A DNA stretch of 10,066 bases from Candidatus Thorarchaeota archaeon (GCA_003345595.1 PRDI01000118.1:1-10066); one strand, 5' to 3'; numbered from the stretch's first letter, positions 1 to 7,744 are shown. Program-made: numbers and translations. The notes: generated by a model not told the origin, from the letters alone.

Positions 1-1008
1 AAAGAGCTGTCAGATATGCTGTTTGAGCATGTTGGAATGGCCGAGGCCAGTAAGAGGGTCTTTGCTCGACTCTTTGCATCAAGTCCAGCGTACCAAGGAG
101 CAGTAGGAGGTCTTACCACAGGGATTCAAGCAGTCACATCCGAAGCTCAAGTCAAGAGGTTTCTAGGCTTCATTCACAGGATCTTGCCTCCAGCTCTCAG
201 AGGTAAGTACGCGGCACATCGGACTGTCAAAGGGATTGACGTGACTATGCCGAGACTGTGGCGAATAGAGATAGGCAAGACCTCCGAACCAAGGATGAAG
301 TCCATCTGCATAGACCGCTCGGACCCACTCGACTTCAGGGAACTGTCTCTGGGTGCTCTGACAGACGCTGGGACGGCAGCACTCCCAGACGTTCCCTTGG
401 CGATAGCATCCGAGGACTTCTGGGTTGAGAGTTCCGACCCCTCTCAGCTAATGCTTCCCATCACGAAGTCGGCAATAACATATCAGCTTCTCACGCCGAG
501 TGTTTCTCAGCGGTCAGTCGAGTCAAGCACCAAACATGTTCTATCGCGCTTGGAGTTCATCCGGGACAGCTTCGGCCTTGAGGACTCGGCTCTTGCCCGG
601 GGACATGTTCTTGATGCGGACGTCCTTGGTAGACCTCTCAGTGTCGTGAGGATTGCACGATCGACAGCTAGGACAGAGTGGAATGACAGTGTCACCAGTG
701 CTGACTTGAAGCAGTCATGGGATCAGGTGCTGGAGCCCGCTCTGAAGGAGTTTATCGAGCTAGCTGAACTGAAGACCGCTACAGAGACTAGATGGGGTCG
801 AGAAAGCAAGGTTGACAGATTCAACACGAAAGTGCTTCGTGCACTAAAGAAACTTGATCTTGGCACGACAGGTTCTCTTGGGCCCACCCTTGAAGAAATC
901 GCAGGCGAGGCAGGAGTGGAGAAACACATAGCCGCTGAGAGTCTGATGACCATGAAAGATGAAGGGGTCATCTATGAGCCTCGAACAGGTCACTACAGGT
1001 TAGTGTGA
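1..1008 (+). CDS. Divergent MCM-like protein (degenerate AAA+ core, MCM-type lid, C-terminal winged helix); probably 5'-truncated by the window edge
   Basis: The frame is open from base 1 (KELSD precedes M at 16). The C-terminus TLEEIAGEAGVEKHIAAESLMTMKDEGVIYEPRTGHYRLV resembles the archaeal MCM C-terminal winged helix (GxIYEPxxGxY). GRPLSVVRIARSTARTEWNDSVTSADL resembles the MCM sensor-2/lid. WRIEIG...ICID has the same spacing as MCM WxLEAG...CCID. The CDS itself is secure; the family call is by-eye alignment. Confidence 0.65.
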   Translation, partial: KELSDMLFEHVGMAEASKRVFARLFASSPAYQGAVGGLTTGIQAVTSEAQVKRFLGFIHRILPPALRGKYAAHRTVKGIDVTMPRLWRIEIGKTSEPRMKSICIDRSDPLDFRELSLGALTDAGTAALPDVPLAIASEDFWVESSDPSQLMLPITKSAITYQLLTPSVSQRSVESSTKHVLSRLEFIRDSFGLEDSALARGHVLDADVLGRPLSVVRIARSTARTEWNDSVTSADLKQSWDQVLEPALKEFIELAELKTATETRWGRESKVDRFNTKVLRALKKLDLGTTGSLGPTLEEIAGEAGVEKHIAAESLMTMKDEGVIYEPRTGHYRLV

Positions 1009-6367: not shown

Positions 6368-7744
6368 ATGGCCATGCCTAGCATGCAGGACGACACGATT
6401 ATCGAAGCGAAACTGTCGCCCTCCGCCAAGGCTGTTCTCGAAGTTGTGCATGAGATTGAGGACGGTCAAGATGCTAAAGTCTTCCAAGACGGTCCTGACA
6501 CCGATCATCTGAGGACAATGACGAAGACGTTTCGTGGGAGCATGTACTCAGCTCTCACGAAGCGACTGGCAGAAGTAATCGATATGGGTGGCGTGTCAAT
6601 AATAACGCAGTCTGATCTCATGTCTTTAGCTATCGATCTGTGGAATCGGAATGCTTCCCGATTGAGCGAAACTGAGGTCGCAGTGATAAAGGGTGCAACC
6701 GAATCACCTGGCTTAGCTCTGAATGAGCTTGCGTTGAAAGTAGGGCTGAGCTACCCTCAGGCGAGACGGGCGCACCAAAGACTCCGCGAATGCGGTATAT
6801 TCCGGGTGCTAGGGTCCCTGAATCTTGATTCAATGGGTCTTGAGAGGGTCCTCTTGGTCATGAAATCCCCCCAGCTAGTCCTGAGTGGACCCTATATAGA
6901 GAAGACGCTCTTTGTTGACGGGTCTTCTCCCACAGCGTATCTTGTGGCAGTCGTCGCCCGCGAACAGACCGCCAATCTTCTCCATCTTGTCAAATCGCTA
7001 AGGAGTGCTGCAGAGAGCATCTTCGTGTGGCGTCTGTCTGCAGGTAAGCTAGGCTTCTCGGACCTGTACCTCAACGCAAGAACAAGCTCGTGGGAACCTG
7101 ATCTCATCCACTTTCGGCTCATGCTTCGAGGCGGAGGGTCGCCCATTGTCCTAGGGGACTCTGCACTGTCGCTGCAACCAAGAGTGAGTTACACCCCTGC
7201 CGATCTCACAATCATTGACCAGTTACGTGACAACTTCATGAAGACCGCAAACGAGATTGTCGTTTCGACTGGACTCTCTGAAAGCACAGCCTTTCGGAAG
7301 CGACAGCAGATCCTGAACAGCGGAATCATCCTCCCTCGACCACGAGTACAAGTGCCTACTCTGTGTGAGCGTGTCATAGTGATACTGCCTCCGGATCTTG
7401 CAGGTGATGTGCTCCCAGCATGGTCTATGCTTCCAGTCACATACGTTTCGAGGGTGTGCAGCATCGAGGATGCTTCGCAGGAGCGTGTCCTACTGCTTGC
7501 TGCTGTCCCCAGAGGGGTCGGCAGAGTAGTGGTCGGGGTGCTGAGCTCTGAGCTCAGTCACGTAGAAGATCATTCAGCACATGTCGTTTCGAGTGGCTCC
7601 GAGGGCTTTGTTTCGATGGCATCGATGTTTGATCGCAGGTCCGGGACTTGGAAATGGAGTCGCGGTGACTTCTTCGACGTGCGGCCATACAGTATCGTGC
7701 GTCGTGAAGTCGATGATGTGTCATTGCCCATAGACTTGGCTTGA
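6368..7744 (+). CDS. Uncharacterised protein with two tandem Lrp/AsnC-like winged-helix units
   Basis: HTH-like segment at about aa 99-146 (LSETEVAVI...LNELALKVGLSYPQARRAHQRLRECGIF), followed by LNLDSMGL as in the Lrp linker. A second at about aa 275-322 (YTPADLTIIDQL...TANEIVVSTGLSESTAFRKRQQILNSGII). The exact start (6368, 6374 or 6383) is uncertain. Confidence 0.7.
   Translation: MAMPSMQDDTIIEAKLSPSAKAVLEVVHEIEDGQDAKVFQDGPDTDHLRTMTKTFRGSMYSALTKRLAEVIDMGGVSIITQSDLMSLAIDLWNRNASRLSETEVAVIKGATESPGLALNELALKVGLSYPQARRAHQRLRECGIFRVLGSLNLDSMGLERVLLVMKSPQLVLSGPYIEKTLFVDGSSPTAYLVAVVAREQTANLLHLVKSLRSAAESIFVWRLSAGKLGFSDLYLNARTSSWEPDLIHFRLMLRGGGSPIVLGDSALSLQPRVSYTPADLTIIDQLRDNFMKTANEIVVSTGLSESTAFRKRQQILNSGIILPRPRVQVPTLCERVIVILPPDLAGDVLPAWSMLPVTYVSRVCSIEDASQERVLLLAAVPRGVGRVVVGVLSSELSHVEDHSAHVVSSGSEGFVSMASMFDRRSGTWKWSRGDFFDVRPYSIVRREVDDVSLPIDLA

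Follow-up and report, generated by a model that had tools for sequence, protein, structure and literature searches.

The window analysed here is a stretch of 10,066 nucleotides from a Candidatus Thorarchaeota genome (C118:1-10066, that is, from base 1 of contig C118 onward). Its first 1,008 positions hold the 3' part of a plus-strand gene, 335 codons and a stop, whose 5' end is open: frame +1 reads through from base 1 to a stop codon at 1006-1008. The product is referred to below as pseudo-MCM. Convergent with this gene, 3' ends facing, is a minus-strand gene (1048-1644) whose 198-aa product contains two gelsolin repeats (Pfam Gelsolin, E 1.3e-28), and this position is kept in 11 of 12 Thorarchaeota loci. 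Gelsolin-repeat proteins are eukaryote-like cytoskeletal proteins typical of Asgard archaea. A plus-strand Fpg/Nei DNA glycosylase gene follows at 1621-2544, its product ending in a CxxC...CxxC zinc finger; its listed start overlaps the start of the gelsolin gene, and translation probably begins instead at the ATG near 1741, which would place the catalytic Pro2 in an N-terminus reading MPEIPE. Further along, an uncharacterised 458-aa protein (6368-7744, plus strand) has only a sub-threshold HTH match and no NCBIfam match, and recurs at this place in 10 of the 17 loci that were compared, namely the window itself and 9 of the 12 Thorarchaeota loci. A first-pass annotation, made from the sequence alone, had proposed that the stretch comes from an Asgard archaeon. 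This is borne out by the adjoining gelsolin gene and by the close orthologues of pseudo-MCM, which are annotated as Thorarchaeota; the near-identical and 58-68%-identical proteins are entered as hypothetical proteins of Candidatus Thorarchaeota.

Because the window begins at base 1 of its contig, the pseudo-MCM gene is cut by the assembly and not by biology. In a sister genome of the same genus (G001), the orthologue (L008:1069-2505) is 479 aa long and 92% identical to the window copy, and thus about 144 N-terminal codons are absent from the latter; the missing part was not found on the other contigs of the assembly (2.73 Mb in 129 contigs, 83% complete). Two numberings have to be kept apart: the first-pass annotation counts from the M at base 16, and the features described below are counted in amino acids from base 1. 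In the former numbering, the peptides that it quoted all lie in frame +1 where it had placed them, with LFEHVGMAEASKRVFARLF at 2-20 and GIQAVTSEAQVKRFLGFIHRILP at 36-58, and W82, D100 and the terminal GVIYEPRTGHYRLV are likewise present in that frame.

A truncated gene at a contig edge could be a decaying pseudogene copy of mcm, and two orthologues are indeed split into two frames, one in the same-family genome G003 (G003:C15:115195-116198) and one in Bathyarchaeia (L074:8001-9435), with products of 267+227 aa and 256+244 aa. However, the truncation of the window copy is simply the contig end, and a comparison with the G001 orthologue by the Nei-Gojobori method gave a dN/dS of 0.094 (dN 0.044, dS 0.47); with more distant orthologues dS is saturated, and dN is 0.25-0.37. 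Additionally, a match was present in 18 of 18 sampled genomes of the same family, 17 of them with an intact frame and G003 with two adjacent ones, and uninterrupted frames of about 480 aa occur both in those 17 genomes and in hundreds of metagenomic clusters. Orthologues are thus conserved and under purifying selection, as opposed to the decaying copy for which the first reading had allowed, and the pseudogene explanation, which has a negligible probability, can be regarded as already refuted by the orthologue clusters, the same-family survey and the dN/dS value. The splits in G003 and L074 may stem from frameshifts, from errors of assembly or from genuine disruption; if genuine, the pseudo-MCM gene would be dispensable in some lineages.

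Several sequence comparisons relate pseudo-MCM to the replicative helicase MCM. A phmmer search of PDB sequences with the fragment matched archaeal MCM 8x7t (E 9e-4) from the sensor 2 lid helix to the last residue, and BLASTP against the genome's own MCM placed fragment residues 164-333 on MCM 516-692 (E 4e-4). A profile of ten family sequences matched SsoMCM with an E-value of 1.4e-10 and gave weaker matches to Mcm7, MCM8 and the RPA32 winged helix, whereas LexA, IclR and similar winged helices scored 0.05-1, against 1e-10 for MCM. Similarly, hhalign of the 52-sequence family alignment against 11 Asgard MCMs returned a probability of 96.6% (E 6.5e-10); its significance is confined to the C-terminal 120 residues, i.e. 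the last lid helix and the winged helix, and its extension through the core is colinear with essentially zero confidence. As judged from these alignments, the resemblance to MCM is beyond chance, and homology is demonstrable from sequence alone for the C-terminal third only. Pfam and NCBIfam models gave nothing above threshold on the fragment, the weak matches being to the archaeal MCM winged helix and the MCM C-terminus. The MCM AAA+ model PF00493 had no match in the fragment even at E 10 and none in ten full-length relatives at E 1, and the curated MCM threshold was not reached. In a six-frame search of the genome, PF00493 matched contig C49 and, weakly, three other places, all outside C118, and PF17207 (MCM_OB) found the canonical MCM only.

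Structure prediction extends the likeness upstream. The full-length orthologue, modelled from the 52-sequence alignment, has a mean pLDDT of 85.9 and a pTM of 0.83, and in a Foldseek search of the PDB every match listed was an MCM2-7 or archaeal MCM chain (best E 6e-12), with alignments spanning 400-570 columns and 414 matches at E <= 0.001. The model of the window fragment alone gave the same ranking. MoxR, RavA and BchI, which are active AAA+ ATPases of the same AAA+ clade as MCM and have neither an OB fold nor an MCM-type winged helix, had scores clearly below those of MCM. From the Foldseek matches of the orthologue model, we infer that pseudo-MCM is an MCM derivative along its whole length; for the AAA+ core, the likeness rests on predicted structures. 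The first-pass annotation had called the protein an MCM paralogue, and the fold searches agree, with MCM as the top match for each of the four parts (OB fold, AAA+ core, lid and winged helix); the likeness therefore extends well past the winged helix and is more than that of a generic wHTH.

The modelled domain order in the orthologue is an OB barrel (aa 47-129), linker helices, the AAA+ core, the lid, a long connecting helix and the winged helix, and the alpha/beta core and lid are of the MCM-type AAA+ fold. The window, in which all of these parts lie on the plus strand, contains the degenerate AAA+ alpha/beta core at 1..441 (aa 1-147), with a pre-core helix (aa 15-26), beta1 (aa 39-44), alpha1 (aa 48-61) and further strands at aa 73-76, 79-82, 87-93, 114-120 and 131-135. 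The MCM-type lid follows at 442..795 (aa 148-265) and includes the sensor 2-like helix GRPLSVVRIARSTAR (aa 210-224) and the long connecting helix, and the C-terminal MCM-type winged helix occupies 808..1005 (aa 270-335), with the wing GVIYEPRTGHYRLV at its end. In the phmmer and hhalign alignments alike, aa 208-335 correspond to the lid helix and winged helix of MCM. A lid segment and a terminal winged helix of MCM type had been recognised on first reading, and the phmmer, BLASTP, profile and hhalign matches confirm both. The wing motif IYEPxxGxYR is retained in the family.

The catalytic motifs have fared differently. At the Walker A position (106..189, plus strand; aa 36-63), the fragment has an invariant GG, the segment AVTSEAQVK in place of the MCM GDPGTGKS, and P63. 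The distance from GG, before beta1, to P63, which closes alpha1, is 25-26 residues in 52 of 56 members, the same as in MCM from RG to the proline of APR, so that the Walker A register originally proposed holds; hhalign also sets aa 36-63 on the MCM P-loop, with low confidence. A P-loop is present in 0 of 52 members. The few scattered GK[ST] triplets among them differ in position, and where MCM would have the Walker Lys and Ser/Thr, the family shows V/P and a poorly conserved R/K.

In contrast, the proposal that CIDRSD (307..324, plus strand; aa 103-108) is a Walker B remnant corresponding to CIDEFD did not hold. This segment lies in and just after the model helix 96-104, just 4 of 56 members retain its Asp (D105), and R106 is the sole conserved residue of the region (40/56). 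The likeness to Walker B is thus probably a chance coincidence of this genus, and the earlier alignment was probably off by one structural element. Tentatively, strand 87-93 would be the Walker B strand, helix 96-104 alpha3, strand 114-120 the sensor 1 strand and strand 130-135 the SRFD strand, a register that combines the zero-confidence colinear extension from hhalign with the model's strand pattern. With the exact register uncertain, no D-E pair that could represent Walker B is conserved family-wide at the end of any core strand, a conserved sensor 1 was likewise not found, and no Arg that could be an arginine finger is conserved across the family in strands 114-135. The two most conserved core strands (340..405, plus strand) carry E114-x-S116 (aa 114-120) and D130-x-P132 (aa 130-135), with E/Q114 in 56/56, S116 in 55/56, D130 in 55/56 and P132 in 54/56 members; D130 falls on the SRFD arginine in the low-confidence hhalign register.

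The core is also short. Between P63 and the lid proline P166 there are 103-113 aa in 53 of 56 members, as compared with about 174 aa in the genome's own MCM, a family deficit of about 65. A short hairpin at aa 73-82 is the sole one left in the fragment model, and the shortened core probably reflects loss of the helix-2-insert and pre-sensor-1 hairpins. The lid helix has kept its basic residues: position 211 (R211 in the fragment), which phmmer sets against the arginine of the MCM segment ITARQLE, carries R in 42 members, K in 13 and T in one (basic in 55/56), R217 is R/K in 55/56 members, and R224 is invariant.

Given these retained features, could pseudo-MCM still be an NTPase with a non-canonical nucleotide site? 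The P-loop segment has the length of that of MCM, strand 87-93 terminates in acidic residues in many members, such as the D-A-D motif of those outside Thorarchaeota, and the position aligned with the sensor 2 Arg is nearly always basic. However, neither the glycine-rich loop nor the Walker lysine is conserved, the residues at the Walker Lys and Ser/Thr places are those given above, and an aspartate, D130, stands at the place of the arginine finger in the low-confidence register. Retained NTPase activity is therefore very improbable. The first-pass description of the protein as ATPase-dead agrees with the absence of a P-loop and of a conserved Walker B, sensor 1 or SRFD, and pseudo-MCM would lack canonical ATP binding and hydrolysis and so would not be a helicase; because the P-loop is absent and the core shortened, it should be unable to act as a motor.

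The N-terminal MCM domains, which lie outside the window, were examined in the orthologue. Of those that had been anticipated, the OB fold is present (aa 47-129, aligning to the MCM OB region), and the Zn finger and the A subdomain are not: two CxxC pairs were found in the N-terminal 170 residues of 0 of 55 full-length members, and ahead of the OB barrel there are just some 45 residues, whose beginning is poorly modelled, leaving no helical A subdomain. Compared with archaeal MCM (P. furiosus AAA+ 4r7z, S. solfataricus 4fdg/2m45, 8x7t), pseudo-MCM has a common order of OB fold, AAA+ core, lid and winged helix, and the last lid helix and winged helix are homologous, with the wing motif common to both. 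It differs in length (about 479 aa, as against about 690 aa), in having no A subdomain, Zn finger, Walker A or conserved Walker B, sensor 1 and SRFD, and in lacking about 65 core residues in the place of MCM's DNA-gripping hairpins.

Archaeal MCM is generally regarded as a single-gene homohexamer. A separate intact MCM, which the first reading had led one to expect in this genome, is indeed encoded on contig C49; it is 696 aa long and carries the Zn finger, Walker A and B, sensor 1, SRFD and sensor 2. That pseudo-MCM is a non-catalytic paralogue of the replicative helicase is very probable. No published description of the family was found in the literature searched, and a 2025 survey of Asgard replisomes gives MCM as mostly single-copy and, in the passages searched, mentions no degenerate paralogue (PMC12680538).

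Degenerate MCM relatives exist elsewhere. Methanopyrus kandleri MCM2 (3f8t), named on first reading as an inactive archaeal MCM homologue, has no specific kinship to pseudo-MCM (family profile E 0.19, in the lid helix only); unlike it, the present family has a winged helix and spans Thorarchaeota, Odinarchaeota, Bathyarchaeia and Methanomethylicaceae. In eukaryotes, MCM-BP, MCMDC2 and the mei-MCMs follow the same logic, being MCM-derived proteins with no working ATPase motifs that occur alongside an active helicase. The MCM_bind model PF09739 had no match at E 10 in the six-frame genome search and none in the Pfam scans, and MCM-BP appeared in the ESM Atlas as a low-score lead only (0.82). Since there is no evidence of common descent with MCM-BP, MCMDC2 or the mei-MCMs, the motifs were probably lost independently of these eukaryotic proteins.

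Members of the family are numerous in one group of Thorarchaeota and scattered elsewhere. For the orthologue P0001, over 200 protein clusters match at 58-68% identity. Among 121 Asgard genomes, full-length matches occur in all genomes of family f1 and in only three or four others, the remaining Asgard matches being C-termini of canonical MCM or small winged-helix proteins. Relatives of 416-490 aa at about 20-25% identity are present in Odinarchaeota, Bathyarchaeia and Methanomethylicaceae, and the family, on these sequence matches, is thus not specific to Asgard archaea. In 150 evenly sampled Thermoproteota genomes, there was no full-length match at E <= 1e-12 except in the centre genome, G130. 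Unnamed look-alike clusters in the ESM Atlas are commonest in Methanobacteriota, which is a lead only. A homologue search that started from the short-form members yielded just 3 proteins. One whole family of Thorarchaeota, with scattered Odinarchaeota, Bathyarchaeia and Methanomethylicaceae, therefore keeps a second MCM-derived protein under purifying selection. Its patchy distribution indicates that pseudo-MCM is not a general replication component.

Gene order around pseudo-MCM is stable over 12 Thorarchaeota loci from 11 genera. It runs from a Fer4 protein and an N6/N4 DNA methylase through pseudo-MCM, gelsolin (on the opposite strand) and Fpg/Nei to an M20 peptidase, a luciferase-like oxidoreductase, Ham1, TrmB, the 458-aa HTH protein and an MBL-fold protein. 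Beyond the Thorarchaeota family, pseudo-MCM has unrelated neighbours (ABC transporter, fasciclin, histidine kinase, AbiEii, PIN, dCTP deaminase and methyltransferase genes), and no gene partner shared across lineages was found in the loci compared. A ParA/MinD-like ATPase gene lies near a family member in two cases: an AAA_31 protein (L062:1086-1772) is encoded about 3.5 kb upstream of the member in G063, and another (L064:8503-9363) two genes downstream of a distant 472-aa candidate member in G042. With two cases only, this proximity may be due to chance.

Archaeal plasmids and viruses often carry MCM genes, and an MCM-like ATPase, BrxL, takes part in defence. Pseudo-MCM might therefore be the relic of an MCM-like gene from a mobile element or defence system, domesticated or merely carried along. 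Its patchiness across Asgard archaea and Thermoproteota, the orphan DNA methylase directly upstream in Thorarchaeota, and the AbiEii and PIN toxin genes beside some Bathyarchaeia copies would fit such an origin. However, PADLOC gave no significant match (best E 0.04-0.07), the only PHROGs match was a weak one to an MCM-type helicase C-terminus (E 0.003), and two pattern scans of viral contigs found no relative. Strong purifying selection and stable chromosomal synteny in Thorarchaeota also argue against this origin, which is quite unlikely.

The main rival to a role connected with the helicase is that of a stand-alone DNA-binding factor in transcription, repair or chromatin, which would bind nucleic acid through its OB fold and winged helix and for which MCM ancestry would be merely historical, with no functional tie to the replicative helicase. 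Both folds are common nucleic-acid binders, and no association with replication genes was found: there was no physical or genomic tie of pseudo-MCM to MCM, Orc1/Cdc6, GINS or other replication genes, none of the loci examined has a family member adjacent to mcm, none of 30 Asgard mcm loci has one within 1.5 kb, and in a complete Bathyarchaeia genome pseudo-MCM and mcm are about 750 kb apart. Genes for the N6/N4 methylase and Fpg/Nei are nearby in Thorarchaeota, and a HhH-GPD glycosylase gene adjoins the distant G042 candidate. Nevertheless, such repair-gene neighbours are not kept beyond one family, and the winged helix and lid helix are nearer to MCM than to LexA, IclR and similar proteins by the profile scores given above. 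A stand-alone role is accordingly rather unlikely, though it has an appreciable share of the probability.

The preferred reading of pseudo-MCM as a non-catalytic MCM paralogue starts from the parts that are closest to MCM, the sensor 2-like lid helix and the winged helix. The MCM of Sulfolobus contacts Orc1-1 bound at the origin through its winged helix (PMC12141716). Because the closest kinship lies in this same region, a shared-partner mechanism appears the most likely one. Pseudo-MCM would then be a probable binding module that either shares a partner with the MCM tail, namely Orc1/Cdc6 or DNA, or uses its MCM-like faces to attach to MCM protomers. Either way, it could influence how the helicase is recruited, assembled or turned over, in the role of an adaptor, a decoy or a chaperone. 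Its most likely function on this analysis would be that of a non-catalytic MCM- or Orc1/Cdc6-binding factor, and it may serve as an MCM regulator, chaperone or loader. The explanation in full, in which a non-catalytic MCM paralogue acts as a binding module on MCM-tail partners or on MCM itself, is somewhat favoured. Against it count the missing physical or genomic tie to replication genes, neighbours that are kept in one Thorarchaeota family only, the patchy distribution, the two split orthologues, and an AAA+ core likeness that depends on predicted structures.

A narrower version holds that pseudo-MCM arose by duplication of mcm in Asgard/TACK archaea and is a dedicated non-catalytic partner of MCM (a loader, chaperone, decoy or extra ring subunit) acting through its winged helix and lid, with heteromeric control in archaea before eukaryotes. 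This is a doubtful proposition; if it were true, control of the helicase by degenerate paralogues, the logic of MCM-BP and MCM2-7, would predate eukaryotes and would be found in archaea. Should the non-catalytic paralogue bind MCM or Orc1/Cdc6, it would provide a case of prokaryotic helicase regulation by a pseudo-enzyme paralogue and would bear on the evolution of the eukaryotic MCM2-7 and MCM-BP system. Should it bind neither, it would still be an AAA+ motor turned into a binding scaffold, and the family merits a database entry.

Two further observations were made in the Asgard genomes. Small proteins with open frames of about 200-295 aa (for example, G082:C81:41193-41384, G103:C30:30971-31183 and G035:C27:7335-7565) have a C-terminal winged helix that matches the family/MCM profile with E-values of 1e-6 to 1e-10, and may be RPA32-like or belong to another MCM-tail-like family. 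Additionally, at Asgard mcm loci such as G051:C9, G045:C9 and G032:C152, many frames are 1,100-2,000 aa long with the MCM match in 2-3 pieces, which is consistent with inteins in the ATPase domain.
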